Positions 9,665-49,895 of a stretch of 64,000 nt of DNA are shown one piece after another (the stretch's first letter is position 1; each line of letters opens with the position of its first letter). The stretch lies in contig NC_135808.1 of the NCBI RefSeq assembly GCF_964213995.1, forward strand, positions 12,090,001 to 12,154,000, read 5' to 3'. This DNA is from Mustelus asterias. Taxonomy: Eukaryota. The notes beneath the pieces are model-generated. The model was not told the origin of the DNA. It ran no database searches and was given only the letters and a program-made list of their open reading frames with translations. The position numbers and the translations under genes are program-made.

Positions 9665-10958
9665 GTGGGCTGGGGGAGGGGGGATTGGGTCAGGGGGCTG
9701 GGGGAGGGGGGATTGGGTCAGTGGGCTGGGGGAGGGGGGATTGGGTCAGTGGGCTGGGGGAGGGGGGATTGGGTCAGGGGGCTGGGGGAGGGGGGATTGG
9801 GTCAGTGGGCTGGGGGAGGGTGGATTGGGTCAGTGGGCTGGGGGAGGCGGGTATTGGGTCAGTGGTCTGGGGGGATTGGGTCAGTGCGCTGGGGGGAGGA
9901 GGGATTGGGTCAGTGGGCTGGGGGAGGAGGGATTGGGTCAGTGGGCTGGGGGAGGGGGGATTGGGTCAGTGGGCTGGGGGGGGGGGATTGGGTCAGGGGG
10001 TGGGGGAGGGGGGATTGGGTCAGTGGGCTGGGGGAGGGGGGATTGGGTCAGTGGGCCGGGGGAGGGGGGATTGGGTCAGTGGGCCGGGGGAGGGGGGATT
10101 GGGTCAGGGGGCCGGGGGAGGGGGGATCGGGTCAGGGGGCCGGGGGAGGGGGGATCGGGTCAGGGGGCCGGGGGAGGGGGGATCGGGTCAGGGGGCCGGG
10201 GGAGGGGGGATCGGGTCAGTGGGCCGGGGGAGGGGGGATCGGGTCAGTGGGCCGGGGGAGGGGGGATCGGGTCAGTGGGCCGGGGGAGGGGGGATCGGGT
10301 CAGGGGGCCGGGGGAGGGGGGATCGGGTCAGGGGGCCGGGGGAGGTGGGATCGGGTGAGGGGGCCGGGGGAGGGGGAATCGGGTCAGTGGGCTGGGGGTG
10401 GGGGGATCGGGTCAGGGGGCTGGGGGAGGGGGGATCGGGTCAGTGGGCTGGGGGAGGGGGGATCGGGTCAATGGGCTGGGGGAGGGGGGATCGGGTCAGT
10501 GGGCTGGGGGAGGGGGGATCGGGTCAGTGGGCTGGGGGAGGGGGGATCGGGTCAGGGGGCTGGGGGAGGGGGGATCGGGTCAGGGGGCTGGGGGAGGGGG
10601 GGATCGGGTCAGGGGGCTGGGGGAGGGGGGATCGGGTCAGGGGGCTGGGGGAGGGGGTTCGGGTCAGTGGGCTGGGGGAGGGGGGATCGGGTCAGTGGGC
10701 TGGGGGAGGGGGGATCGGGTCAGTGGGCTGGGGGAGGGGGGATCGGGTCAGTGGGCTGGGGGAGGGGGGATCGGGTCAGTGGGCTGGGGGAGGGGGGATC
10801 GGGTCAGTGGGCTGGGGGAGGGGGGATCGGGTCAGGGGGAGGGGGGATTGGGTCAGGGGGCTGGGGGAGGGGGGATTGGGTCAGTGGGCTGGGGGAGGGG
10901 GGATTGGGTCACCGGGCTGGGGGAGGGGGGATTGGGTCAGGGGGCTGTGGGAGGGGGC
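9665..10958 (+). repeat. 28-bp G-rich minisatellite (GTGGGCTGGGGGAGGGGGGATTGGGTCA)n, ~46 units
   Basis: Directly visible tandem repeat with four G-tracts per unit; explains the Gly/Trp-rich ORFs in all three frames. Confidence 0.97.
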
Positions 10959-11104
10959 AGGAGGTCAGGAGCAGAGACAGCTGAAAGAATGGTCTCAATC
11001 TTAACTGAGAAATTGCTGAGTTCCTCACAAGTGTTGGGATTGAGGGGGGAGAGGGGGTTTTAAGGAGTGTGTTTGTCGAGGGGAAAGGGAGAATGTTCTA
11101 AAAC

Positions 11105-11250
11105 TGACTTTATAAAGTGAAAAAGGCTCCAGACACAATAACGGGGCTCAGTTTGATTGGATTACAGAATTCCTGGCACTGAGAGTGTCTCTGATCACGT
11201 GAAGTCAGATCCAGGAAGTGCAGCTCGGAACAAGAATTGAAAGTGAAAGA
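11105..11250 (+). promoter_or_regulatory. Proximal promoter module of TRIM copy B with ISRE/IRF-E
   Basis: AATTGAAAGTGAAAG at 11235-11249 (GAAANNGAAA), ETS CAGGAAGTG at 11212-11220, E-box TCACGTGA at 11195-11202, inverted CCAAT (GATTGG) near 11155, TTTATAAA near 11109. All lie 45-190 nt upstream of the ATG. Confidence 0.6.
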
Positions 11251-11294
11251 GGTGGAACAGGGAAGAGAGACAGAGAGAGACTCTGAGCACTGGG

Positions 11295-14200
11295 ATGGCA
11301 TCTCCGGATCTCACCCAGGAACTAACCTGTCCCATCTGCCTGGAGATATTCACCCAGCCCGTGTCTCTGGAATGTGAACATCACTTCTGCAGGAGCTGCA
11401 TCTCCCAGAGTTGGGAGAAGGTCCGGGGAGATGTTTCCTGTCCCCAGTGTCGACAGGTCTTCACCCAGAGGAACATCAGGCCCGCTCGCACCCTGGCTAA
11501 CATCGTGGAGAAGCTCAGAGTGCTGAAGGTGACACAGCCAGGGGAGGAGTTTTACTGTCAGGAACACGAGGAGAAGCTGAAACTGTTCTGTGAAGATGAA
11601 GAGAGAGCCATCTGTCTGGTGTGTGGCATGTCCAGTGCTCACAAGATGCACAGTGTGATCCCAATAAAGGAGGCAGCCCAGATATACAAGGTACTGGATC
11701 ACTGCCACTGACACAGACAGGGAGGGAAGAGGGACAGGGGGGTAAGTAACAGAGTGAGAGGGGGGCTTGTTGGATGAGGGAGGGGAGTGCTGCAGGGAGT
11801 GGGGGAGGGATGGGGAGAAGGAGGTGGAGAGGGTTGAGGGGAGGGGAAGGTTGAGGGGAGGAGAGGGTTGAGGGGAGGAGGGGAATGGACCTGGAGGAGG
11901 ATAATTGCAACAGGCGGAATTAACACAAAGTTCCTCCTAAATTTCTTCATCCTTTCATTCCAAACATTGAGAGTGACCAATCCTGGGAATATCTCCTTCC
12001 CTCCTTCACCAGTGTGAGTGGATTTAAAAACAGCAAACTCCTCCAGAAGGTGCCGTTAGCGGGTGTTCCCTTTCACAACCCTCTTTGTGTCCTTTCTGTC
12101 TGCCAGAACAAGTTAGAAACATCGTTGGAGACTCTGCAGAAGCAAATGGACCTCAGTCTTCACAGGAAAAGAGAAGGAGAGGATGGCATTTCACAGATGA
12201 AGGTAGGAGAGTGTCCTTTAGGCTTTGTGTAATGTTCCCTGTGTTTGTCATTGAGAGTGAGTGAGCTTCTCACACAGTGAGAGAGAGAGAGAGAGTTTTA
12301 CTGAATAAAATGCTGGGGTCCAAATCACATTGCAGCTGGAATATAAGGGAGCGTCTGTAAATTGCAAAATATGGTAACAATGTATAAAGGTCTAATTTTA
12401 CCGCTGCACCCAATTTCAACGATTGACAAAATAAATCTCGTCAGTAACTCACTCCCTGATATCCATTATTCGACATATAAACCATCTGAACCTCTCAATT
12501 AGATTCCCGTCTGTAACTCACTCTCAGGTATCCATTATTCTGTATATAAACCATCTGAACCCCTCGATTCGATTCCAGTCTATAACTCACTCCCAGGGAT
12601 TCATTTTCGATATATAAACCATCTGAACCCCTCGACTGGATTCCAGTCTGTAACCCACTCCCAGGTATGCATTATTCTATGTATGATCCATCATAACCTC
12701 TTGGTTAGAATCCAGTCTGTAACTCATTCCCAGGTATCCATTATTCTATATATAAACCATCTGAACCCCTCGATTAGATTCCAGTCTGTAACACAGACCC
12801 CATGCCATTATTCCAGATATAAACCATCTGAACCTCTTGATTAGATTCCAGTGTGTAACTCACTCCCAGGTATCCATTATTCTACATATAAATCATCTGA
12901 ACCCCTCAATTAGATTCCAGCCTATTTCTCTCTCCCAGGTATGCATTATTCTATATATAAACCATTATAACCGCTTGATTTGATTCCAGTCTGTAACTCA
13001 TTCCCAGGTATCCATTCTTTTATATGTCAAACTATCTGAACCTCTCGATTAGATTCCAGGCTGTAACTCACTCCCAGGCATCCATTATTCTATATATAAA
13101 CCATCTGAACCCCTCGATTAGATTCCAGTCTGGAACTCACTCCCAGGTATCCATTATTCTATATATAAACCATCTGAACCCCTCGATTAGATTCCAGTCT
13201 GTAACTCACTCCCAGGTATCCATTATTCTATATATAAACCATCTGAACCCCTCGATTAGATTCCAGTCTGTAACTCACTCCCAGGTATCCATTATTCTAT
13301 ATATAAACCATCTGAACCCCTCGATTAGATTCCAGTCTGTCAGTGACTCCCAGTTATTCATTTTTCTATATCTAACCATTTGAACCCTTGATTAGATTCC
13401 AGTCTGTAATTAACTCCCAGGTAAACATTGATCCATGTATAAATTTGAACCTCTCGATTAGTTTTCTCTCAGTAACTCACTCCTTGCTCTCTTATATTTT
13501 ATCATAAACCATTGGTATAATTTTACTGTGTTCAGCTGTAACTCACTCCCACACGCCGAATATTCCATCAAACAGCTGATCGTGCAGTGAATGGACAGAG
13601 ACCAGGGACACTGGGATTACAGACATTGTTTATTCCGTTCTGTATTAAATCTGTTCCAGACTGAAGTTGAGAGACTGAGAAATGAAATCCGCAGTGAATT
13701 TGAAAAGATGCACAAGTTCCTGTTTGAGAAGGAAGAGCTGATGAAAACAGAGTTGGAGCGAAAAAGCAATAAAATATTTGAGGAAATGGAGAACAATTTA
13801 AAGAAAACCTTGGATGAAATGTCTTCTGTTGAAGGAGCAATAAGAGATCTTCAATCCAGGCTGGAGATACAAGAGGCTCCAGAGTTCCTCAAGGTACAAA
13901 ACCTCTTTGCCTTGTCCAGGAGAACATTGCGGGACTGAGGGCTGACATACTGACCTTTAACCTCTGGGCCTGGGTTTGGCCTCAGTCTGATTGGTTGGAT
14001 GATTATCTCTTGCTGCTGTCAGTGAGGGTGCAGTGGGAGATGGGGTGAGGTAATCTCAGTGTGATTCCTATACACAGTGTAACCACAGCACTGAGTGATG
14101 CTTGGATTCAGAGAGAACTGGGCTGGGAGCTGGAGGGATTTACACTGGGGCAGATGGGGCTGTTCTGAGGATGGGGTTAAGGGGCATTGTTGAAGTGTAG

Positions 14201-23920: not shown

Positions 23921-25394
23921 GGGGGAGGAGGATTGGGTCAGTGGGCCGGGGGAGGGGGGATTGGGTCAGTGGGCCGGGGGAGGGGGGATTGGGTCAGTGG
24001 GCTGGGGGAGGGGGGATTGGGTCAGTGGGCTGGGGGAGGAGGATTGGGTCAGTGGGCCGGGGGAGGGGGGATTGGGTCAGTGGGCTGGGGGAGGGGGGAT
24101 TGGGTCAGTGGGCCGGGGGACGGGGGATTGGGTCAGTGGGCTGGGGGAGGGGGGATTGGGTCAGTGGGCTGGGGGAGGGGGGATTGGGTCAGGGGGCTGG
24201 GGGAGGGGGGATTGGGTCAGTGGGCTGGGGGAGGGGGGATTGGGTCAGTGGGCTGGGGGAGGGGGGATTGTGTCAGGGGGCTGGGGGAGGGGGGATTGGG
24301 TCAGTGGGCTGGGGGAGGGGGGATTGGGTCAGTGGGCTGGGGGAGGGGGGATTGGGTCAGGGGGCTGGGGGAGGGGGGATTGGGTCAGTGGGCTGGGGGA
24401 GGGGGGATTAGGTCAGTGGGCTGGGGGAGGGGTGATTGGGTCAGGGGGCTGGGGGAGGGGGGATTGGGTCAGTGGGCTGTGGGAGGGGAGATTGGGTCAG
24501 TGGGCTGGGGGAGGGGGGATTGGGTCAGTGGGCTGGGGGAGGGGGGATTGGGTCAGTGGGCTGGGGGAGGGGGGATTGGGTCAGTGGGTTGGGGGAGGGG
24601 GGATTGGGTCAGGGGGCTGGGGGAGGGGGTATTGGGTCAGTGGGCTGAGGGGAGGGGGGATTGGGTCAGGGTCTGTGGGAGGGGAGTTTGGGTCAGTGGG
24701 CTGGGGAAGGGGGGTTTGGGTCAGTGGGCTGTGGGAGGGGGGATTGAGTCAGTGGGCCGGGGGAGGGGGGATTGGGTCATGGGCTGGGGGAGGCGGGATT
24801 GGGTCAGGGGGTTGGGGGAGGGGGGAGGGGGAGGGGGGATTCCGTCAGGGGGCTGGGGAGGGGGGATTGGGTCAGTGGGTTGGGGGAGGGGGATTGGGTC
24901 AGTGGGCCGGGGGAGGGGGGATTGGGTCAGTTGGCTGGGGGAGGGGGGATTGGGTCAGGGGGAGTGGGGAGCGGTGTTCGGGTCAGTGGGCTGGGGGAGG
25001 GGGGATCGGGTCAGTGGGCTGGGGGAGGGGGGATCGGGTCAGTGGGCTGGGGGAGGGGGTTCGGGTCAGTGGGCTGGGGGAGGGGGGATTGGGTCAGGGG
25101 GCTGGGGGAGGGGAGATTGGGTCAGGGGGCTGGGGGAGGGGGGATTGGGTCAGGGGGCTGGGGGAGGGGGGATTGGGTCAGTGGGCTGGGGGAGGGGGGA
25201 TTGGGTCAGTGGGCTGGGGGAGGGGGGATTGGGTCAGGGGGCTGGGGGAGGGGGGATTGGGTCAGGGGGCTGGGGGAGGGGGGATTGGGTCAGGGGGCTG
25301 GAGGAGGGGGCATTGGGTCAGTGGGCTGGGGAGGGGGGTTTGGGTCAGGGGGCTGGGGTAGGGGGGATTGGGTCAGGGGGCTGGGGGAGGGGGC
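23921..25394 (+). repeat. 28-bp G-rich minisatellite, ~52 units
   Basis: Same unit, upstream of copy C. Confidence 0.97.
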
Positions 25395-25541
25395 AGGAGG
25401 TCAGGAGCAGAGACAGCTGAAAGAATGGTCTCAATCTTAACTGAGAAATTGCTGAGTTCCTCACAAGTGTTGGGATTGAGGGGGGAGAGGGGGGTTTTAA
25501 GGAGTGTGTTTGTCGAGGGGAAAGGGAGAATGTTCTAAAAC

Positions 25542-25687
25542 TGACTTTATAAAGTGAAAAAGGCTCCAGACACAATAAAGGGGCTCAGTTTGATTGGATT
25601 ACAGAATTCCTGGCACTGAGAGTGTCTCTGATCACGTGAAGTCAAATCCAGGAAGTGCAGCTCGGAACAAGAGTTGAAAGTGAAAGA
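25542..25687 (+). promoter_or_regulatory. Proximal promoter module of TRIM copy C with ISRE
   Basis: Same module as copy B; GAAAGTGAAAG at 25676-25686. Confidence 0.6.
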
Positions 25688-25731
25688 GGTGGAACAGGGA
25701 AGAGAGACAGAGAGAGACTCTGAGCACTGGG

Positions 25732-28700
25732 ATGGCATCTCCGGATCTCACCCAGGAACTAACCTGTCCCATCTGCCTGGAGATATTCACCCAGCCCGTG
25801 TCTCTGGAATGTGAACATCACTTCTGCAGGAGCTGCATCTCCCAGAGTTGGGAGAAGGTCCCGGGTGATGTTTCCTGCCCCCAGTGTCGACAGGTCTTCA
25901 CCCAGAGGAACATCAGGCCCGCTCGCACCCTGGCTAACATCGTGGAGAAGCTCAGAGTGCTGAAGGTGACACAGCCAGAGGAGGAGTTTTACTGTCAGGA
26001 ACACGAGGAGAAGCTGAAACTGTTCTGTGAAGTTGAACAGAGAGCCATCTGTGTGGATTGCTGGGGTTCAGAACATCAAACTCACAAAGATCTGCACATC
26101 AAAGAGGCTGTCCAGCTCTACAAGGTACTGATTCACTGCTATGGACACAGACAGGGAGGGAAGAGGGGGAGGCGGTGGGGGTAACAGAGGGAGAGAGGGT
26201 TTGTAGAGTGAGGGGAGGGAGAGGAGGGGGGCAGGAGAGACTGGGCTGGGGATGTGTGAGGAGGTGGAGAGTGTTGGGAAGGGGGGATCATTGGGAGAAT
26301 GTTGTTGGAGGAGGGGAATGGACCTGGAGGAGGATAATTGCAACAGGCGGAATTAACACAAAGTTTCTACTTAATTTCTATATCCTTTCATCCCAAACAT
26401 TGAGAGGGACCAATCCTGGGAATATCTCCTTCCCTCCTTCACCAGTGTGAGTGGATTTAAAAACAGCAAACTCCTCCAGAAGGTGCCGTTAGCGGGTGTT
26501 CCCTTTCACAACCCTCTTTGTGTCCTTTCTGTCTGCCAGAACAAGTTAGAAACATCATTGGAGACTCTGCAGAAGCAAATGGACCTCAGTCTTCACAGTA
26601 AAAGAGAAGGAGAGGATGGCATTTCACAGATGAATGTAGGAGAGTGTCCTTTAGGCTTTGTGTAATGTTCCCTGTGTTTGTCATTGAGAGTGAGTGAGCT
26701 TCTCACACAGTGAGAGAGAGGGAGAGAGTTTTACTGAATAAAATGCTGGGGTCCAAATCACATTGCAGCTGCTCCCTGAACTGGACTGTAAGGGAGCGTC
26801 TGTAAATTGCAAAATATGGCAACAATGTATAAAGGTCTAATTTTACCGCTGCACCCAATCTCAACAATTCATTAAATAAATCTAGTCAGTAACTCACTCC
26901 CTGATGTCCATTATCCTATAGATAAACCATCTGAACCCCTCCATTAGATTCCAGCCTGTAACTCACTCCCAGGTATCCATTATTCTATAAATAAACCATC
27001 TGAACCCCACAATTAGATTCCAGTCTGTAATTAACTCCCAGGTAAACATTGATCTATGTATAAATTTGAACCCCTCGATTAGTTTTCTCTCAGTAACTCA
27101 CTCCTTGCTCTCTTATATTTTATCATAAACCATTGGTATAATTTTACTGTGTTCAGCTGTAACTCACTCCCACACGCCGAATATTCCATCAAACAGCTGA
27201 TCGTGCAGTGAATGGGCAGAGACCAGGGACACTGGGATTAGAGACATTGTTTATTCCGCTCTGGTTTCAATCTGTTCCAGACTGAAGTTGAGAGACTGAG
27301 AAATGAAATCCGCAGTGAATTTGAAAAGATGCACAAGTTCCTGTTTGAGAAGGAAGAGCTGATGAAAACAGAGTTGGAGCGAAAAAGCAATAAAATATTT
27401 GAGGAAATGGAGAACAATTTAAAGAAAACCTTGGATGAAATGTCTTCTGTTGAAGGAGCAATAAGAGATCTTCAATCCAGGCTGGAGATACAAAAGGCTC
27501 CAGAGTTCCTCAAGGTACAAAACCTCTTTGCCTTGTCCAGGAGAATATTGGGGGACTGAGGGCTGACACACTGACCTTTAACCTCTGGGCCTGGGTTTGG
27601 CCTCAGTCTGATTGGGTGGATGATTATCTCTTGCTGCTGTCAGTGAGGGTGCAGTGGGAGATGGGGTGAGGTAATCTCAGTGTGATTCCTATACACAGTG
27701 TAACCACAGCACTGAGTGATGTTTGGATTCAGAGAGAACTGTGCTGGTAGCTGGAGGGATTTACACTGGGGCAGATGGGGCTGTTCTGAGGATGGGGTTA
27801 AGGGGCATTGTTGAAGTGTAGAAGGTAGATCTTTATTGTGCTGCGGGTTCTGCTGTTCCTGACCCTGCAAACGCTTGATTCAACTGAAGACACAGCCAGC
27901 AATGGGGTTGGGATTGAAATCGAGGATTCAGAGAAGACACAAATTAGAGGAGTGCAGATGTCTCCGAGCGTTGTGGAGCTGGAGGAGATCACAGAGACAG
28001 AGAGGAGTGAGGCCAGGGAGGAATTTGAAAACCAGGATGAGAATGTTTTCAATGAATACGTTGTTGAGCTGGGAGCCAGTGGAGGTCACCAAGCACCGGG
28101 GTGATGGGGGCTACGATCAGATAGATAAGAATGTAAGCTGCTGAGGACAGGACATCCAGCTGGACATGGGCACCGGGAGGGGTGGTTGGGTGATCAGGAA
28201 TATTTGGGAATGGGATAGAGGGACACAAGAGATGGGTCACATGGAGATAATGAGCTCAGAGTGGGAATGAAAGTAAAAAGGAAAAGCTATTTTCTAAATA
28301 ATTCCTCGGTGTCTCCATTCTGTTCCCCCCTCATAATTTCTCCCTGAGATTTACAGCAACAGATCTTTAATCTGAGCTCAGGAACATAGGAATTAGGAGC
28401 AGGAGTCGGCAATTCAGCCCTTCGAGCCTGCTCCGCCATCCAATCAGATCATGGCTGATCTCTCCCTGGTCTCAAATCCACCTCCCCACCTGTTCCCCAT
28501 ATCCCTTTAACCTGTTTTTTTTATCAGAAATATATCCATCTCCTTCTTGAAACTATTTAATGATTCCGACTCCACCGCGCCACGGGGCAGCGAGTTACAC
28601 AAATTTACCCCCCTCTGCGAGAAGTTGTTCCTCCTCCTCTCAGTTTTAAATCTACCGCCTCTCAACCTATACCTGTGACCCCTTGTTCTAATCTGACTCA

Positions 28701-41976: not shown

Positions 41977-43125
41977 TATTTGCTACCAAATAAACCTTTT
42001 GGACTTAAACCTGTTGTTGTGAGACTTCTTACTGGAGATATTCACCCAGCCCGTGTCTCTGGAATGTGAACATCACTTCTGCAGGAGCTGCATCTCCCAG
42101 AGTTGGGAGAAGGTCCCGGGAGATGTTTCCTGCCCCCAGTGTCGACAGGTCTTCACCCAGAGGAACATCAGGCCCGCTCGCACCCTGGCTAACATCGTGG
42201 AGAAGCTCAGAGTGCTGAAGGTGACACAGCCAGAGGAGGAGTTTTACTGTCAGGAACACGAGGAGAAGCTGAAACTGTTCTGTGAAGATGAAGAGAGAGC
42301 CATCTGTCTGGTGTGTGGCATGTCCAGAGCTCACAAGATGCACAGTGTGATCCCAATAAAGGAGGCAGCCCAGATATACAAGGTACTGGATCAGTGCCAC
42401 TGACACAGAAAGGGAGGAAAGAGGGACAGGGGAGTAAGTAACAGAGTGAGAGGGGGGCTTGTTGGATGAGGGAAGGGGGGCTGCAGGGAGTGGGGGAGGG
42501 ATGGGGAGAGGGAGGTGGAGAGGGTTGAGGGGAGGGGAAGGTTGATGGAGGAGGGGAATGGACCTGGAGGAGGATAATTGCAACAGGCGGAATTAACACA
42601 AAGTTTTTACTAAATTTCTTAATCCTTTCATCCCAAACATTGAGAGTGACCAATCCTGGGAATATCTCCTTCTCTCCTTCACCAGTGTGAGTGGATTTAA
42701 ACACAGCAAACTCCTCCAGAAGGTGCTGTTAGCGAGTGTTCCCTTTCACAACCCTCTTTGTGTCCTTTCTGTCTTCCAGAACAAGTTAGAAACATCATTG
42801 GGGACTCTGCAGAAGCAAATGGACCTCAGTCTTCACAGGAAAAGAGAAGGAGAGGATGGCATTTCACAGATGAAGGTAGGAGAGTGTCCTTTAGGCTTTG
42901 TGTAATGTTCCCTGTGTTTGTCATTGTGAGTGAGTGAGCTTCTCACACAGTGAGAGAGAGGGAGAGAGTTTTACTGAATAAAATGCTGGGGTCCAAATCA
43001 CATTGCAGCTGCTCCCTGAACTGGACTGTAAGGGAGCGTCTGTAAATTGCAAAATATGGCAACAATGTATAAAGGTCTAATTTTATCACAACACCCAATC
43101 TCAACGATTGACAAAATAAATCTCG

Positions 43126-43456
43126 TCAGTAACTCACTCCCTGATATCCATTATTCTATATATAAACCATCTGAACTCCTCGATTAGATTCCAGTCTGTA
43201 ACCCACTCCCACGTATCCATTATTCTATATATAAACCATCTGAACCCCTTGATTAGATTCCAATCTGTAACTCACTCCCAGGTTTCCATTATTCTACATG
43301 TAGATCATCTGAACCCCTCAATTAGATTCCAGTCTGGAACACAGACCCCATTCCATTATTCTAGATCGAAACTATCTGAACCTCTTGATGAGATTCCAGT
43401 CTGTAACTCGCTCCCAGGTATACATTATTCTACATGTAAATCATCTGAACCCCTCA
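43126..43456 (+). repeat. 69-bp satellite, 5' part (intron 2 of copy D)
   Basis: Same unit; interrupted at ~43456 by a CR1 element. Confidence 0.9.
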
Positions 43457-43490
43457 GAACCCCTCAAACCTATATAGGATAAGGGTAACT

Positions 43491-44510
43491 ATGAGTGATA
43501 GGCCAGTTCGGTGCTTCCGGTGTGGGATGTGGGAGTCCCTGGAAACACCTAGCCTCCCGGAGGACCACATTTGCGCCAGGTGCGTGGAACTGCAGCTCCT
43601 GAGGGACCGCGTCACGGAACTGGAGCTGCAGATTGCTGACCTTGGTCAAGTCAGGGAGAATGAGATAATAATTGACATGAGTTATAGGGAACTAGTTACA
43701 CCGGGGCATCAGGAGGAAGCCACGTGGGTCACAGTTAGGAGGAGTAAAGGTCAGAAGGGTAACGTACTAGAGAGTACTCCAGTGGCTGTCTCTCATAATA
43801 GGAAGGGCTCGGCGACAGGTGTGAGAGGGGAGGGGAGTGAGCAATTAGTGGAGGGGTCACCTGTGGTTGTCCCCCTCCAAAACAAGTATATTGTTTTGGA
43901 TAGTGTGGAGGAGGATGACTCTCCAGGGGTAAGCCACAGTGACCAGGTCACTGGCACAGAGTCAGGCTCTGTGTCCCAGAAAGGAAAGAGAGGGGTTAGG
44001 AGAGCAATAGTGGTGGGGGATGCGTCGGTTAGAGGCACGGACAGGCGATTCTGTGGGTGCGAACGGGACTCCAGGATGGTAGTCTGCCTACTTGGTGCTG
44101 GGGTAATGGATGTCTCCGAGCGGATAGGAGGCATCTTAAAAGGGGAAGATAAAGAAACGGATGTCATTGTACACATTGGTGCAAATGACGTAGATAGGAA
44201 GAGCAGGGGGATCCTACGAGAGCAATTCAGGGAGTTGGGAAATAGGCTAAAATGTAGGGCCTCCGGGGTGGCCATCTCTGGGCTGCTCCCAATGCCTCGT
44301 GCCAGTGAGGCTAAGAATAGGGAGATAGTACAATTGAACGCTTGGCTAAAGTACTGGTCCAGGAGGGAGGGCTTCATTTTCCTAGATCAATGGGAAGTTT
44401 TCAGGAGAGGATGGCACCTGTACAAGAAGGACGGGTCACAACTAAGTTGGAAGGGCACGAATATCCTGGCTGGGAGTTTTGCTAGTGCAGTTCGGGGGGG
44501 TTTAAACTAG
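43491..44510 (+). CDS. CR1 ORF1: zinc finger/leucine zipper + SGNH esterase-like domain
   Basis: CxxC..CxxC (CFRC, CARC) followed by heptad leucines; esterase blocks AIVVGDA, VIVHIGAND and DGSQL; ends GLN*. Confidence 0.88.
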   Translation: MSDRPVRCFRCGMWESLETPSLPEDHICARCVELQLLRDRVTELELQIADLGQVRENEIIIDMSYRELVTPGHQEEATWVTVRRSKGQKGNVLESTPVAVSHNRKGSATGVRGEGSEQLVEGSPVVVPLQNKYIVLDSVEEDDSPGVSHSDQVTGTESGSVSQKGKRGVRRAIVVGDASVRGTDRRFCGCERDSRMVVCLLGAGVMDVSERIGGILKGEDKETDVIVHIGANDVDRKSRGILREQFRELGNRLKCRASGVAISGLLPMPRASEAKNREIVQLNAWLKYWSRREGFIFLDQWEVFRRGWHLYKKDGSQLSWKGTNILAGSFASAVRGGLN

Positions 44511-47434
44511 TATGGCAGGGGGGTGGGGATCAAAATATTAGGTCTACAAGTGTAGAGGCTGGGGACGAGCTTGGGGCTGGGACAAGGCTGGCAAAGGAGA
44601 AGAGCACTCTGGGGGAGGATGACCTCACTGGGCCTAGAGGTCTGGAGTGCTTATACTTCAATGCAAGGAGCGTAGCAGGTAAGACAGACGAACTTAAGGC
44701 CTTAATGCTCACGAGGAATTTGGATGTGGTTGCGGTGACAGAGACTTGGTTGAAAGAGGGACAGGACTGGCAGCTGAATATTCCGGGGTACAAGTGTTTT
44801 AGGCGAGACAGAGGAGGGGCCAAAAGAGGTGGGGGAGTAGCAGTATTAGTTGGAGAGCATATTACAGCGGTGCAGAGGGAGGACAATTCAGAGGGGTCGT
44901 GTAACAAGTCACTTTGGGTGGAGTTTAGAAACAGGAAGGGCGCAGTCACTATGTTGGGGGTATACTACAGGCCCCCCAACAGCCTAAGGGAAGTGAAAGA
45001 ACGGATATATCAGGAGATACTGGATAGGTGCAGGAAATATAGGGTTGTTGTCGTGGGAGACTTCAATTTCCCTGGTATAGACTGGAAATCGCTGAGAGCT
45101 GGGATTCTGAATGGGGAGGAATTTGTAAAATGCGTACAGGAGGGTTCTTTGGAACAATATGTAGATAGCCCGACTAGAGAGGGAGCTATTCTGGACCTGG
45201 TACTGGGGAATGAGCCCGGTCAGGTCTTCAAAGTTTCGGTAGGGGAACATGTAGCAAATAGTGACCACAATTCTGTTAGCTTTAGGATAGTGATGGAAAA
45301 GGATGAGTGGTGTCCCAAGGGTAAGGTGTTGGATTGGGGGAAGGCTCACTTTAGTGGGATTAGGCAGAAATTGGCAGCTCTTGATTGGGAGAGGCTGTTT
45401 GAGGGTAAATCCACATCTGGCATGTGGGAGTCTTTTAAGGAACAGTTGTTAGGGCTGCAGGACAGGCATGTGCCTGTAAAAAAGAAGGATAGGAAGGGTA
45501 GGATTCGAGAACCGTGGATAACCAGGGAAATTGAGGGACTGGTCAAAAAGAAAAGAGAGGCGTATGTTAGGTCCAGGCAGCTAAAAACGGAGGGAGCTCT
45601 GGAGGAGTACAAAGAAAGTAGGAAAGAACTCAAACGGGGAATTAGAAGGGCAAAAATGGGTCACGAAATGTCCTTGGCAGACAGGATTAAGGAGAATCCC
45701 AAGGCATTTTATTCATACGTTACGAACAAAAGGGTTGTCAGGGAAAAAATCGGACCTCTCAGGGACAAAAGTGGGGAATTATGCTTGGAGCCCAATGAAG
45801 TAGGGGAGATCCTAAATGAATACTTTGCGTCGGTATTCACAAAGGAGAGGGATGTGTTGACTGGGAGTGTCTCGGAGGGGAGTGTTGGACTGTTGGAGAA
45901 AATCTCCATTACAAGAGAGGAAGTGCTAGGTTTGTTAGAGAATATAAAGACTGACAAATCCCCAGGGCCTGATGGAATCTATCCAAGGCTGCTCAGGGAG
46001 ACGAGAAATGAAATCTCTGGGCCTCTGACGCAAATCTTTGTCTTGTCACTGGACGCAGGTGAGGTCCCAGAGGATTGGAGGATAGCTAATGTGGTCCCGT
46101 TATTTAAGAAGGGTAGGAAGGATAACCCGGGTAATTATAGGCTGGTGAGCTTGACGTCCGTGGTGGGGAAGTTGTTGGAGAAGATTCTTAGAGATAGGAT
46201 GTATGCGCATTTAGAAAGGAATAAACTCATTAACGATAGTCAGCATGGTTTTGTGAGAGGGAGGTCATGCCTCACTAACCTGGTGGAGTTTTTTGAAGAA
46301 GTGACCAGAATGGTTGACGAGGGAAGGGCCGTGGATGTCGTCTATATGGACTTTAGTAAAGCGTTTGACAAAGTCCCTCATGGTAGGCTGGTGAAAAAGG
46401 TTGGATCTCATGGGATAAAGGGGGAGGTGGCTAGATGGGTGGAGAAGTGGCTTGGTCACAGAAGACAGAGGGTGGTAGTGGAAGGGTCTTTTTCCGGCTG
46501 GAGGCCTGTGACTAGTGGTGTTCCGCAGGGCTCTGTATTGGGAGCTCTGCTGTTTGTGATTTATAGAAACGATCTGGAAGAAGGTGTAACTGGGGTGATC
46601 AGTAAGTTTGCAGATGACACAAAATTGGCAGGACTTGCAGATAGTGAGGAGCATTGTCAGAAGCTACAGAAGGATATAGATAGGCTGGAAATTTGGGCAA
46701 AGAAATGGCAGATGGAGTTCAATCCTGATAAATGCGAAGTGATGCATTTTGGTAGAAATAATGTAGGGAGGAGCTATACGATAAATGGCAGAACCATAAA
46801 GGGTGTAGATACGCAGAGGGACCTGGATGTGCAAGTCCACAGATCCTTGAAGGTGACGTCACAGGTGGAGAAGGTGGTGAAGAAGGCATATGGCATGCTT
46901 GCCTTTATAGGATGGGGCATAGAGTATAAAAGTTGGGGTCTGATATTGCAGATGTATAGAACGTTGGTTCGGCCGCATTTGGAATACTGCGTCCAGTTCT
47001 GGTCGCCACACTACCAGAAGGACGTGGAGGCTTTGGAGAGAGTACAGAGGAGGTTTACCAGGATGTTGCCTGGTATGGAGGGGCTTAGTTATGAGGAGAG
47101 ATTGGGTAAACTGGGGTTGTTCTCCCTGGAAAGACGGAGGATGAGGGGAGACTTAATAGAGGTGTATAAAATTATGAAAGGCATAGATAGGGTGAACGGT
47201 GGGAAGCTTTTCCCCAGGTCGGTGGCGACGTTCACGAGGGGTCATAGGTTCAAGGTGAAGGGGGGGAGGTTTAACACAGATATCAGAAGGACATATTTTA
47301 CACAGAGGGTGGTGGGTGCCTGGAATGCGCTGCCAGGCAAGGTGGTGGAGGCGGACACACTGGGAACGTTTAAGATTTATCTAGACAGCCACATGAACGG
47401 AATGGGAATGGAGGGAGACAAAAGAATGGTCTAG
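44486..47434 (+). CDS. CR1 ORF2: AP endonuclease + reverse transcriptase
   Basis: The frame is open from 44486 (after TAG 44483-85) and the first ATG is only at 44705. APE motifs CLYFNARS, ETW, YRPP, GDFN and SDH; RT motifs QHGF, DFSKAFDKV, PQGSVLG and FADD. Confidence 0.93.
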   Translation, partial: CSSGGFKLVWQGGGDQNIRSTSVEAGDELGAGTRLAKEKSTLGEDDLTGPRGLECLYFNARSVAGKTDELKALMLTRNLDVVAVTETWLKEGQDWQLNIPGYKCFRRDRGGAKRGGGVAVLVGEHITAVQREDNSEGSCNKSLWVEFRNRKGAVTMLGVYYRPPNSLREVKERIYQEILDRCRKYRVVVVGDFNFPGIDWKSLRAGILNGEEFVKCVQEGSLEQYVDSPTREGAILDLVLGNEPGQVFKVSVGEHVANSDHNSVSFRIVMEKDEWCPKGKVLDWGKAHFSGIRQKLAALDWERLFEGKSTSGMWESFKEQLLGLQDRHVPVKKKDRKGRIREPWITREIEGLVKKKREAYVRSRQLKTEGALEEYKESRKELKRGIRRAKMGHEMSLADRIKENPKAFYSYVTNKRVVREKIGPLRDKSGELCLEPNEVGEILNEYFASVFTKERDVLTGSVSEGSVGLLEKISITREEVLGLLENIKTDKSPGPDGIYPRLLRETRNEISGPLTQIFVLSLDAGEVPEDWRIANVVPLFKKGRKDNPGNYRLVSLTSVVGKLLEKILRDRMYAHLERNKLINDSQHGFVRGRSCLTNLVEFFEEVTRMVDEGRAVDVVYMDFSKAFDKVPHGRLVKKVGSHGIKGEVARWVEKWLGHRRQRVVVEGSFSGWRPVTSGVPQGSVLGALLFVIYRNDLEEGVTGVISKFADDTKLAGLADSEEHCQKLQKDIDRLEIWAKKWQMEFNPDKCEVMHFGRNNVGRSYTINGRTIKGVDTQRDLDVQVHRSLKVTSQVEKVVKKAYGMLAFIGWGIEYKSWGLILQMYRTLVRPHLEYCVQFWSPHYQKDVEALERVQRRFTRMLPGMEGLSYEERLGKLGLFSLERRRMRGDLIEVYKIMKGIDRVNGGKLFPRSVATFTRGHRFKVKGGRFNTDIRRTYFTQRVVGAWNALPGKVVEADTLGTFKIYLDSHMNGMGMEGDKRMV

Positions 47435-47510
47435 TTTGGACCAGGGGGTGGCACGGGCTTGGAGGGCCGAAGGGCCTGTTCCTGTGCTGTATTGTTCTTT
47501 GTTCTTTGTT

Positions 47511-49895
47511 CTCAATTAGATTCCAGTCTGTAACTCACTCCCAGGGATCCATTCTTCTCTATATAAACCATCAGAACCCCTCGATTAGATTCCAGTCTGT
47601 AACCCACTTCCAGGTATCCATTATTCTGTATGTAAACCATCCGAACCCCTCGGTTAGATTCTAGTCTGTAATTAACTCCGAGATATCCACTATTCTATAT
47701 ATAACCATCTGAACCCCTCGATTAGATTCCAGTCAGTAACACAGACCTCATGCCATTATTCCAGATATAAACCATCTGAACCCCTCGATTAGATTCCAGT
47801 CTGTAATTCATTCCCAGGTATCCATTATTCTATATATAAACCATCTGAACGTCTTGATTTGATTCCAGTCTGTCACCCATTCCCAGGGATCCATTCTTTT
47901 ATATGTCAAACTTCCGAACCTCTCGATTATATTCCAGGCTGCAACTCACTCCCAAGTATCTATTATTCTGTCTATAATCCATTTGAACCCCCGATTAGAT
48001 TCCAGTCTGTAACTCACTCCCAGGTATCCATTATTCTATATATAAACCATCTGAACCCCTTGATTAGATTCCAGTCTGTAACTCACTCCCAGGTATCCAT
48101 TATTCTATATATAAACCATCTGAACCTCTTGATTAGATTCCAGTCTGTAACTCACTCCCAGGTATCCATTATTCTATATATAAACCATCTGAACCCCTCG
48201 ATTAGATTCCAGTCTGTAACTCACTCCCAGGTATCCATTATTCTATATATAAACCATCTGAATCTCTTGATTAGATTCCAGTCTGTAACTCACTCCCAGG
48301 TATCCATTATTCTATATATAAACCATCTGAACCCCTTGATTAGATTCCAGTCTGTAACTCACTCCCAGGTATCCATTATTCTATATATAAACCATCTGAA
48401 CCCCTCGATTAGATTCCAGTCTGTAACTCACTCCCAGGTATCCATTATTCTATATATAAACCATCTGAACCTCTTGATTAGATTCCAGTCTGTAACTCAC
48501 TCCCAGGTATCCATTATTCTATATATAAACCATCTGAACCCCTTGATTAGATTCCAGTCTGTAACTCACTCCCAGGTATCCATTATTCTATATATAAACC
48601 ATCTGAACCTCTTGATTAGATTCCAGTCTGTAACTCACTCCCAGCTATCCATTATTCTATATATAAACCATCTGAACCTCTTGATTAGATTCCAGTCTGT
48701 AACTCACTCCCAGGTATCCATTATTCTATATATAAACCATCTGAACCCCTTGATTAGATTCCAGTCTGTAACTCACTCCCAGGTATCCATTATTCTATAT
48801 ATAAACCATCTGAACCTCTTGATTAGATTCCAGTCTGTAACTCACTCCCAGGTATCCATTATTCTATATATAAACCATCTGAACCCCTTGATTAGATTCC
48901 AGTCTGTAACTCACTCCCAGGTATCCATTATTCTACATAGAAACTATCTGAACCCCTCAACTGAATTCCAGTCTGTAACTCATATAAATCATAGAAGAAA
49001 TCATAGAAACCCTACAGTACAGAAAGAGGCCATTCGGCCCATTGAGTCTGCACCGACCACAATCCCACCCAGGCCCTACCCCCATATCTACCCACTAATC
49101 CCTCCACCCTACACATCTCAGGACACTAAGGGCAATTTTCAGCATGGCCAATCAACCTAACCCGCACATCTTTGGACTGTGGGAGGAAACCGGGGCACCC
49201 GGAGGAAACCCACGCAGACACGAGGAGAATGTGCAAACTCCACACAGACAGTGACCCAAGCCGGGAATCGAACCCAGCTCCCTGGAGATGTGAAGCAGCA
49301 GTACTAACCACTGTGCTACCGTGCCGCCCTCATGCCGTACTCATTCCCAAGTATCCATTATTCTGCGTATAAACCATCTGAACCCCTCGATTAGATTCCA
49401 GTCTGCAACTCACTCCCAGGTCTCCATTATTCTATATATAAACCATCTGAACCCCTTGATTAGATTCCAATCTGTAACTCACTCCCAGGTATCCATTATT
49501 CCACATACAGATCATCTGAACCCCGCAATTAGATTCCAGTCTGTAACTCACTCCCATGGATCCATTATTCTATATATAAACCATCTGGACCCCTCGATTA
49601 GATTTCAATTTATAACTCACTCCCAGGTATATATTATTCTACATATAAATCGTCTGAACCCCTCAATTAGATTGCAGTCTGTAACTCATTCCCAGGTATC
49701 CATTATTCTATATATAAACCATCCAAACCCCTCGATTAGATTCCAGTCTGTAACTCACTCCCAGGTATCCATTATTCTATAAATAAACCATTTGAACCCT
49801 TGATTAGATTCCAGTCTGTAATGAACTACCAGGTAAACATTGATCCATGTATAAATTTGAACCCCTCGATTAGTTTTCTCTCAGTAACTCACTCC
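47511..49895 (+). repeat. 69-bp satellite, 3' part, ~30 units (intron 2 of copy D), interrupted by a SINE
   Basis: Same unit; highly homogeneous block at ~47990-48930. Confidence 0.95.
48984..49329 (-). mobile_element. Full-length HE1-type SINE inside the 69-bp satellite
   Basis: Reverse complement shows head, core and tail. Confidence 0.92.

Follow-up and report, generated by a model that had tools for sequence, protein, structure and literature searches.

Candidate programmed -1 frameshifting at the ORF1-ORF2 junction of a shark CR1 LINE

A CR1 LINE of Mustelus asterias likely expresses its endonuclease and reverse transcriptase fused to ORF1, in a predicted protein of 1314 residues that would arise by programmed -1 frameshifting at the heptamer U_UUA_AAC just before the ORF1 stop codon. 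Since the same heptamer recurs in ten families, with ORF2 one base back and usually start-less, the enzyme is likely made by slippage; this reading of the junction is well supported by sequence comparison. The copy was analysed in a window of 64,000 nt, the whole stretch of DNA considered here (NCBI RefSeq GCF_964213995.1, contig NC_135808.1, 12,090,001-12,154,000 of the forward strand).

In the proposed mechanism, the majority of ribosomes would terminate at UAG and release ORF1p, and a minority, decoding UUA with tRNA-Leu and AAC with tRNA-Asn, would re-pair one base back (on UUU and AAA). The shifted ribosomes would read the C of AAC and the UA of the stop codon as Leu and proceed via the linker into the APE endonuclease and the reverse transcriptase (RT), giving a high ORF1p : ORF2p ratio, like that of gag : gag-pol. 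Two signals would jointly cause the pause: the stop codon next to the heptamer and an invariant G-rich motif 11-20 nt further on, which may act through a bound protein or in another way.

The CR1 copy and its slip site

The features of the copy, in window coordinates, are as follows.

43465..47514, + strand: CR1 LINE copy, 5'-truncated ~26 nt ahead of the ORF1 start codon, within a 69-bp satellite
43491..44510, + strand: ORF1, 339 aa (ATG at 43491, TAG at 44508-44510; C-terminus ...GLN-stop)
44486..47434, + strand: ORF2 frame, 982 codons, -1 relative to ORF1
44498..44504, + strand: overlapping heptamer G_GGU_UUA, strict, family-specific and not conserved
44501..44507, + strand: slippery heptamer U_UUA_AAC (TTTAAAC), in the X_XXY_YYZ phase of ORF1
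44507..44653, + strand: linker of 49 codons, where -1 is the only open frame, without ATG
44508..44510, + strand: ORF1 stop TAG, directly 3' of the heptamer, candidate pause signal
44518..44528, + strand: G-rich motif, candidate stimulator, Gly-x-Gly in the -1 frame
44648-44671, + strand: first APE motif CLYFNARS, upstream of ATG 44705
~44654-45268, + strand: APE endonuclease in ORF2 (PF03372, E 1e-14)
44705..44707, + strand: first in-frame ORF2 ATG, ~30 residues inside the endonuclease fold (placed by a weak alignment to the L1 endonuclease, E 0.06)
~46118-46771, + strand: reverse transcriptase in ORF2 (PF00078, E 8e-34)
47435..47514, + strand: short 3' UTR that lacks poly(A) and ends in a T-rich 7-nt unit repeated ~3 times

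Both ORF frames of the copy are intact. Satellite flanks it at 43125-43456 and from 47515 on; position 43465 is the starting point of 27 copy matches, and in contigs of DNA runs loose ends extend upstream at 43465. ORF1 has an N-terminal CX2C-X16-CX2C motif, a likely coiled coil and a C-terminal SGNH/GDSL esterase, which matches PF13472 at E 1.1e-6 (under the curated cut-off); the ORF1 family profile matches the ZfL2-1 ORF1 esterase 4c1b at E 3e-33. The element thus has the marks of the CR1 clade: an ORF2 with APE and RT, an SGNH esterase ORF1 with a Cys motif, and a short-repeat tail without poly(A). In a pairwise match, ORF2 and a swallow CR1 protein share 46% identity over 404 aa; the APE tree is one without named references. 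The domain search of the CR1 LINE proteins gave no protease domain.

A preliminary description of this DNA had placed TTTAAAC at 44501-44507 in the X_XXY_YYZ phase of ORF1, with the -1 frame of ORF2 open from 44486 across the slip site and its first in-frame ATG (44705) downstream of CLYFNARS; all of this was confirmed on the sequence. The ATG that it noted at 44512 does lie out of frame, with a reading frame of just 9 codons, but is not the only one nearby, as further out-of-frame ATGs lie at 44619 and 44661. Of the two extra heptamers that it reported overlapping the site, G_GGT_TTA (44498) is strict but is lost in other families, where the -3 codon varies, and G_GGG_GGT is not a strict heptamer; both were rejected as conserved slip sites. 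The junction heptamer exceeds chance: the window copy has only three strict in-phase heptamers across the 338 codons of ORF1, of which two fall at the junction, and none in the ~980 codons of ORF2.

Conservation of the junction

TTTAAAC at the end of ORF1 is retained in 140 of 151 copies at distinct places of the same genome and in all ten families, in a set retrieved with ORF1 protein queries that contain the Leu-Asn end and so favour copies that keep it; families and clades share ancestry (about four clades in a quick tree), so these counts are not independent. Both the heptamer and the frame relation proposed earlier thus held, ORF2 being -1 in 105 of the 151 copies and the rest having scattered private indels or lacking the motif.

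Conservation at the site goes beyond protein coding. When one natural copy per family was compared over the last 64 ORF1 codons (ten families), the only invariant codons were TTA, AAC and two Trp codons, and the remaining invariant residues (Asn, two Gly, Phe and two Leu) were encoded by 2-4 codons each. TTA accounts for 26 of 194 Leu codons in these ORF1s and AAC for 38 of 83 Asn codons. The -3 codon encodes seven different residues among the families, yet its wobble base is T in 10/10. After the heptamer, the ORF1 stop is TAA in three of the ten families.

The in-phase heptamer is accompanied by a usually start-less -1 ORF that is open from the site. By family, the linker to the first APE motif has 43, 44, 47, 49, 50, 59, 76, 89 or 95/120 codons; across families its -1 frame is open and the other two contain stops, and a shared subfamily indel of 72 nt is in frame. 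The -1 frame opens just 1-5 codons ahead of the heptamer in 8/10 families; hence, there is no room for upstream initiation. Of 97 open copies, 80 lack an in-frame ATG ahead of the first APE motif; the 17 exceptions are all copies of families L085 and L224 and two of the eight of L061. Seven of nine assessable families lack a fixed upstream ATG. Within 30 nt of the ORF1 stop, an in-frame ATG, which would have counted against the earlier claim, occurs in none of the 97 open shark copies.

Beyond sharks, Leu-Asn forms the C-terminus of 80 among 138 related esterase ORF1 proteins, including those of swallow, turaco, turtles, lizards, a snake and an eel, known here from proteins, and at the bird-like loci L124 and L128 the DNA reads TTTAAAC-TAG. 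In ORF1 proteins that end in Gly-Asn the heptamer is possibly G_GGA_AAC. At the strict threshold applied, searching with a bird ORF1 retrieved nothing, the related-locus search found no relatives in metagenome, viral and genome collections, and the APE pattern had 0 matches in viral contigs.

Distant CR1-like elements, retrieved by an ORF2 motif alone, carry ORF1s of other types, and most of those with a -1 ORF2 have another classic heptamer in the same phase. Among the 31 with a long upstream ORF, ORF2 is -1 in 20, in frame in five and +1 in six, and several of these 11 look broken. A strict in-phase heptamer lies within the first 30 overlap codons in 17 of the 20 -1 loci, compared to 1.0-2.0 expected from in-frame background heptamer rates; three lack one. 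These heptamers (12 A_AAA_AAC, four U_UUU_UUA and one A_AAU_UUU) vary by clade; hence, slipperiness is preserved although the residue pair that is encoded differs (Leu-Asn, Lys-Asn, Phe-Leu). Clades with A_AAA_AAC have it 170-440 nt upstream of the ORF1 stop, in a conserved Lys-Asn-Leu ORF1 motif. The APE tree is a quick one and omits L124, L148, L189 and the L097 family, whose sequences are short or broken.

With moderate confidence, we favour -1 frameshifting as the ancestral, general ORF2 route of two-ORF CR1-type LINEs across animals. This route would have survived replacement of ORF1 (esterase, PHD or other), switched among three classic viral heptamers, operated in vertebrates with no 3' structure via the adjacent stop and G-rich motif, and been replaced by UGA-C readthrough in one side branch. 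In that case, the lipid-related esterase would stay attached to CR1 ORF2p in an uncleaved fusion resembling gag-pol.

Downstream signals and rival explanations

The preliminary description had named the adjacent stop and/or the G-rich tract as a possible stimulator. The tract is conserved: G occupies positions +11, +12, +13, +15, +18 and +19 past the heptamer in 10/10 families, and the motif falls within the top 0.1-1.2% of G-rich windows in eight of ten. A G-quadruplex is not claimed, because the motif contains just two G3 tracts. Efficient viral -1 sites usually have downstream structure. Here, local folding and a duplex scan predicted no stem-loop or pseudoknot stem 3' of the slip site; a structure 5-9 nt downstream is usual, not universal, at frameshift sites. 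Local structure was not significant in the window copy (z +0.7 and -1.1) or in eight shark families (z between -1.1 and +1.8); consensus folds of the two A_AAA_AAC clades reached about -1 kcal/mol, and the 60-nt window had z < -2 in 3 of 26 distant loci, with no common fold. Long-range pairing of the G-rich motif was rejected, as it pairs best with C-rich parts of the ORF1 coding sequence whose location varies, without covariation. With no stem predicted, the adjacent stop and the G-rich motif acting together are the likeliest candidate source of the pause; this is the least certain part of the mechanism.

Termination-reinitiation, with a -1 restart at or near the stop, at an AUG where there is one or AUG-independent as reported for L1, would yield a separate ORF2p and make the heptamer a termination/reinitiation signal or a relic. 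It is how L1 and SART1 are generally accepted to express ORF2 (PMC2881922; PMC3708506), would likewise keep the linker open, and fits the failure to find a stimulatory structure; the in-frame ATG 2-5 nt past the stop in bird-like L128 and L154 would allow it there. Yet the shark families have neither a UAAUG stop-start nor, at a conserved place, a TURBS-type UGGGA upstream, and no in-frame ATG close to the stop (0/97 copies). Reinitiation also leaves unexplained the -3 wobble T, the exclusive use of TTA and AAC codons and the switches to other canonical heptamers, and it makes no sense at the A_AAA_AAC heptamers, which lie 170-440 nt before the ORF1 stop. We consider it unlikely.

The slippery look could also be a by-product of an ORF1 that needs a Leu-Asn end, with ORF2 starting at a near-cognate codon (e.g. 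CTG 44642) or by internal entry. Leu-Asn does close the last esterase helix in those 80 of 138 proteins, and the A_AAA_AAC site falls inside a conserved protein motif; however, codon choice is fixed and not the residue alone, and the solved ZfL2-1 esterase and many relatives have other ends. A CTG start, which the preliminary description had allowed for, is ruled against by the homologous codon, which is CTG in two of nine families and otherwise TTG, TTA or ATA, and a downstream start gives no reason to maintain a 43-120-codon linker open and in frame. This account appears very improbable, the codon-choice and CTG data having already largely refuted it. Equally slim are the chances of an RNA-level change (splicing, editing or polymerase slippage) that adds or removes bases to put ORF2 in frame. 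G-runs are known intronic enhancers and conserved ones lie just downstream, and the window sequence at the stop reads A-GT, resembling a weak 5' splice site. However, GT occurs there in just 3/10 families and AG is missing in the three TAA families, TTTAAAC contains no long homopolymer, and the 46 non -1 copies have scattered indels without the shared deletion expected from retroposed spliced RNA. No matching run is recorded as RNA; in contigs from one further run and from three that may be RNA, no GT-AG joint or indel was seen at the slip site among the matches listed. The TURBS motif, the CTG start and the splice sites were each rejected on family comparison.

Comparison with known systems and significance

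The candidate slip heptamers of these CR1-type elements include, in the same phase, those of coronavirus 1a/1b (U_UUA_AAC), retroviruses (A_AAA_AAC) and HIV (U_UUU_UUA), which likewise have a structural ORF upstream and a polymerase ORF in the -1 frame (PMC5009743). According to the same source, U_UUA_AAC and A_AAA_AAC belong to the heptamers at which mammalian ribosomes shift most readily, and shifting can depend on a stop that follows the site closely. Unlike the viral sites, the CR1 site has a conserved G-rich motif in place of a predicted 3' stem-loop or pseudoknot, its stop codon directly adjoins the heptamer in the vertebrate type, and its host is a non-LTR retrotransposon without a protease for cutting the fusion.

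L1 and SART1 resemble CR1 in having a bicistronic LINE RNA with ORF2 dependent on ORF1 translation, but yield a separate ORF2p (termination-reinitiation; UAAUG stop-start); the CR1 copy lacks a stop-start AUG, has ORF2 overlapping ORF1 in the -1 frame and is predicted to make a fusion. According to a review (PMC5911963), Dictyostelium TRE5-A and TRE3-A both need a -1 frameshift for ORF2 translation; they are APE-type non-LTR elements that differ from the CR1 copy in lineage and ORF1. Canonical vertebrate CR1 LINEs, like the one here, have an esterase ORF1, an APE-RT ORF2 and no poly(A) (PMC13343379; PMC4316615); both papers describe two ORFs without a junction signal, and the word 'frameshift' does not occur. 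The literature searched, whose coverage stops short of the founding CR1 papers, gave no report of -1 frameshifting for CR1.

CR1 is the dominant retrotransposon in most vertebrates, and the usual answer on LINE ORF2 translation rests on L1 and SART1. That translation is called an open, important question in PMC3894237, and the defined seven-base site makes it directly testable by reporter. CR1-group elements make up 22-34% of elasmobranch genomes (PMC13343379); if frameshifting is true, known -1 frameshifts would gain a very abundant cellular-genome class, and the real ORF2 protein would be a fusion and not an ATG-started fragment, with consequences for annotation and for the construction of active CR1 elements. 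The CR1 junction also suggests a structure-free stimulator worth characterising.

The CR1 copy and its ORF1-ORF2 junction

The LINE copy is truncated at its 5' end at 43465 and is surrounded by a 69-bp satellite. By Pfam, ORF1 contains a GDSL esterase, and ORF2 contains APE and RT domains. The ORF1 family profile matches the structure of the ZfL2-1 ORF1 esterase, sharks and rays supply the nearest named relatives of ORF1, and a swallow CR1 protein shares 46% identity with ORF2 over 404 aa.

Features of the LINE copy and of the rest of the window
43491 (ATG) to 44508-44510 (TAG), + strand: ORF1 (ORF list)
44486-47434, + strand: ORF2 frame, stop-free, 982 codons, -1 relative to ORF1 (ORF list)
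44501-44507, + strand: TTTAAAC heptamer in X_XXY_YYZ phase, adjoining the ORF1 stop (window sequence)
43125-43456, 47515-48982 and 49339-49500: 69-bp satellite array that holds the LINE insertion (main block: 21 copies)
42023-42403 and 42597-42905: exon-like frames of a RING plus B-box protein (TRIM-like, by eye), upstream of the LINE
5834, 21644, 36425, 37266 and 56964, all + strand: five near-identical repeat copies (dispersed or segmental), each with TTTAAACTGG
10001-12000 and 24001-26000: two G-rich blocks, GC about 0.64-0.65, GC skew >0.5

The preliminary description holds for the phase of the heptamer, with the ORF1 stop immediately 3', for the -1 frame of ORF2, open across the heptamer, for 44705 as the first ATG in that frame, and for the computed length of the predicted ORF1-ORF2 fusion (1314 aa). 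The ATG at 44512, said to be the only one nearby, is out of frame as described, but there are two others (44619 and 44661), also out of frame. By a weak L1 endonuclease alignment (E 0.06), ATG 44705 falls ~30 residues into the endonuclease fold, past the first strand and its conserved Asn, a catalytic residue. Within ORF2 itself, some 980 codons long, no strict slippery heptamer occurs in phase, possibly through avoidance.

An intron of the TRIM-like gene probably holds both the satellite and the LINE, and the satellite yields a spurious 455-codon repeat ORF. The two G-rich blocks are probably simple repeats, and the five-copy repeat has, as far as seen, no link to the LINE junction.

Conservation of the proposed slip site within the genome

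The initial DNA search gave 30 loci, the window copy among them, and TTTAAAC was kept in all 30, followed by TAG in 28 and TAA in 2. The set grew to 156 loci with 151 distinct contexts through protein searches that used four other ORF1s and through 40 lower-ranked matches picked by hand; anchored by a profile that excludes the last 11 ORF1 codons, 140 of the 151 have TTTAAAC at a fixed place. The copies form 11 clusters, treated as 10 families. When one natural copy per family was compared over the last 64 ORF1 codons, the only invariant codons were two Trp columns, TTA and AAC. Six further invariant residues near the ORF1 end use 2-4 codons each; in the same ORF1s TTA accounts for 26 of 194 Leu codons, and AAC for 38 of 83 Asn codons. 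The residue encoded just ahead of TTA is G, S, D, T, R, C or A, yet its codon ends in T in 10/10 families. The junction signal is real and strongly conserved.

The proposed -1 relation extends to most of the copies: the first APE motif of ORF2 is -1 in 105 of 151, frame 0 in 16 and +1 in 12, and it was absent from view in 18. Indels in the 46 copies other than -1 are scattered, and 20 fall in the G-run. We found the -1 frame open from the slip site to this motif in 97 copies, with stops in both other frames, and it begins 1-5 codons upstream of the heptamer in 8/10 families. Among these 97, linker length is family-specific (43 to 120 codons); an ATG occurs in 17 linkers (families L085 and L224, plus 2/8 of L061), and in none within 30 nt of the ORF1 stop. 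A start at CTG 44642, which the preliminary description had set against frameshifting, is not borne out: the homologous codon is CTG, TTG, TTA or ATA across families. One copy, L211 of family L208, has an apparent duplicate of the first APE motif in its linker and retains the -1 frame.

Candidate stimulators

The proposed stimulator fared unevenly: the G-rich tract is conserved in 10/10 families, but RNA downstream of the window heptamer folds no better than shuffles. The same was found for eight shark families, and two clades of distant loci with A_AAA_AAC, folded as alignments, had no significant downstream structure either. In all 10 shark families G occupies +11, +12, +13, +15, +18 and +19 after the heptamer. 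Read in the -1 frame, this stretch gives the codons GGG-NNN-GGG, although farther downstream GGG accounts for 103 of 276 Gly codons; the conserved positions suggest an RNA-level motif. No conserved pairing partner was found for it among the shark families, and its two G3 tracts fall short of a standard quadruplex. The ORF1 stop adjoining the heptamer is a candidate second stimulator beside the G-rich motif; according to excerpts of PMC5009743, pea enation mosaic virus requires a stop close behind its shift site.

Distant elements and competing explanations

The C-terminal ORF1 anchor was present in 138/197 proteins, of which 80 have Leu-Asn as their last two residues and 9 have Gly-Asn; at the protein level, named Leu-Asn relatives include those of a swallow, a turaco, four turtles, three lizards, a snake and an eel. 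Distant esterase ORF1s (P0107, P0108, P0110, P0111, P0115, P0117, P0118, P0154, P0175, P0160, P0177) terminate with Gly-Asn, Lys-Asn or Glu-Asn, at variable distance from the esterase domain; such ends would be compatible with G_GGA_AAC or A_AAA_AAC plus a stop.

A scan by ORF2 motif, which took no account of the junction, yielded at least 87 loci, and 60 of those listed were accepted by eye as real APE elements. Among the matches listed, two bird-like loci have TTTAAAC-TAG plus a G-rich tract, and three more have an in-phase TTTAAAC. Of the 31 listed loci with at least 150 upstream codons, ORF2 is -1 in 20, in frame in 5 and +1 in 6, and within the first 30 overlap codons a strict in-phase heptamer is present in 17 of the 20, where 1.0-2.0 would be expected; these counts are not independent events. 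In a quick APE tree the heptamer goes with clade: two clades carry A_AAA_AAC, a third has U_UUU_UUA, and U_UUA_AAC belongs to the vertebrate type and to two other loci. In the A_AAA_AAC clades the heptamer lies 170-440 nt upstream of the ORF1 stop, and several distant-locus ORF1s carry PHD fingers, not esterases.

We consider it most likely, from these comparisons, that tandem -1 slippage on U_UUA_AAC yields an ORF1-linker-APE-RT fusion: a minority of ribosomes would slip and so bypass the ORF1 stop. Reinitiation after ORF1 termination is unlikely, even though an in-frame ATG directly past the stop in bird-like L128 and L154 would help it; protein constraint on the ORF1 end combined with a downstream ORF2 start is much less likely still. 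The heptamer and its encoded residues change while the phase is kept, which selection on slippage predicts and neither of these does. Splicing or another RNA change joining the frames is just as improbable as protein constraint, with GT at the site in 3/10 families and a TAA stop in 3/10.

Our literature search found no report of CR1 frameshifting; the founding CR1 papers and Repbase reports lay outside its reach. Frameshift in the ribosomal sense is absent from the excerpts of PMC13343379, PMC4316615, PMC3708506, PMC3905857, PMC4120745, PMC2734521, PMC3894237 and PMC2881922; those of PMC5009743 lack CR1 and name non-LTR elements only as HeT-A/TART, and those of PMC5006619 and PMC4700185 hold nothing further on CR1. 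An excerpt of PMC5911963 states a requirement for -1 frameshifting in Dictyostelium TRE5-A and TRE3-A. The mechanism is known, and its setting in a CR1 LINE seems undescribed.

In three related CR1-like elements on one branch of the APE tree, L135 (1288-1293), L150 and L163, ORF1 and ORF2 share a reading frame, with one TGA between them and CTG directly after it, and ORF1 has a PHD finger in the two tested; stop-codon readthrough is a candidate alternative recoding route there. Among the distant-locus contigs, those of the genome collection probably represent host DNA that was placed in bacterial bins. Animal-type LINEs occur in contigs filed as bacterial genomes (L166, L167, L170, L173, L174, L181, L184-L186, L190, L194, L195), and a shark-type ORF1, P0029, bears a Pseudomonas protein name; both likely reflect host contamination of public bins.
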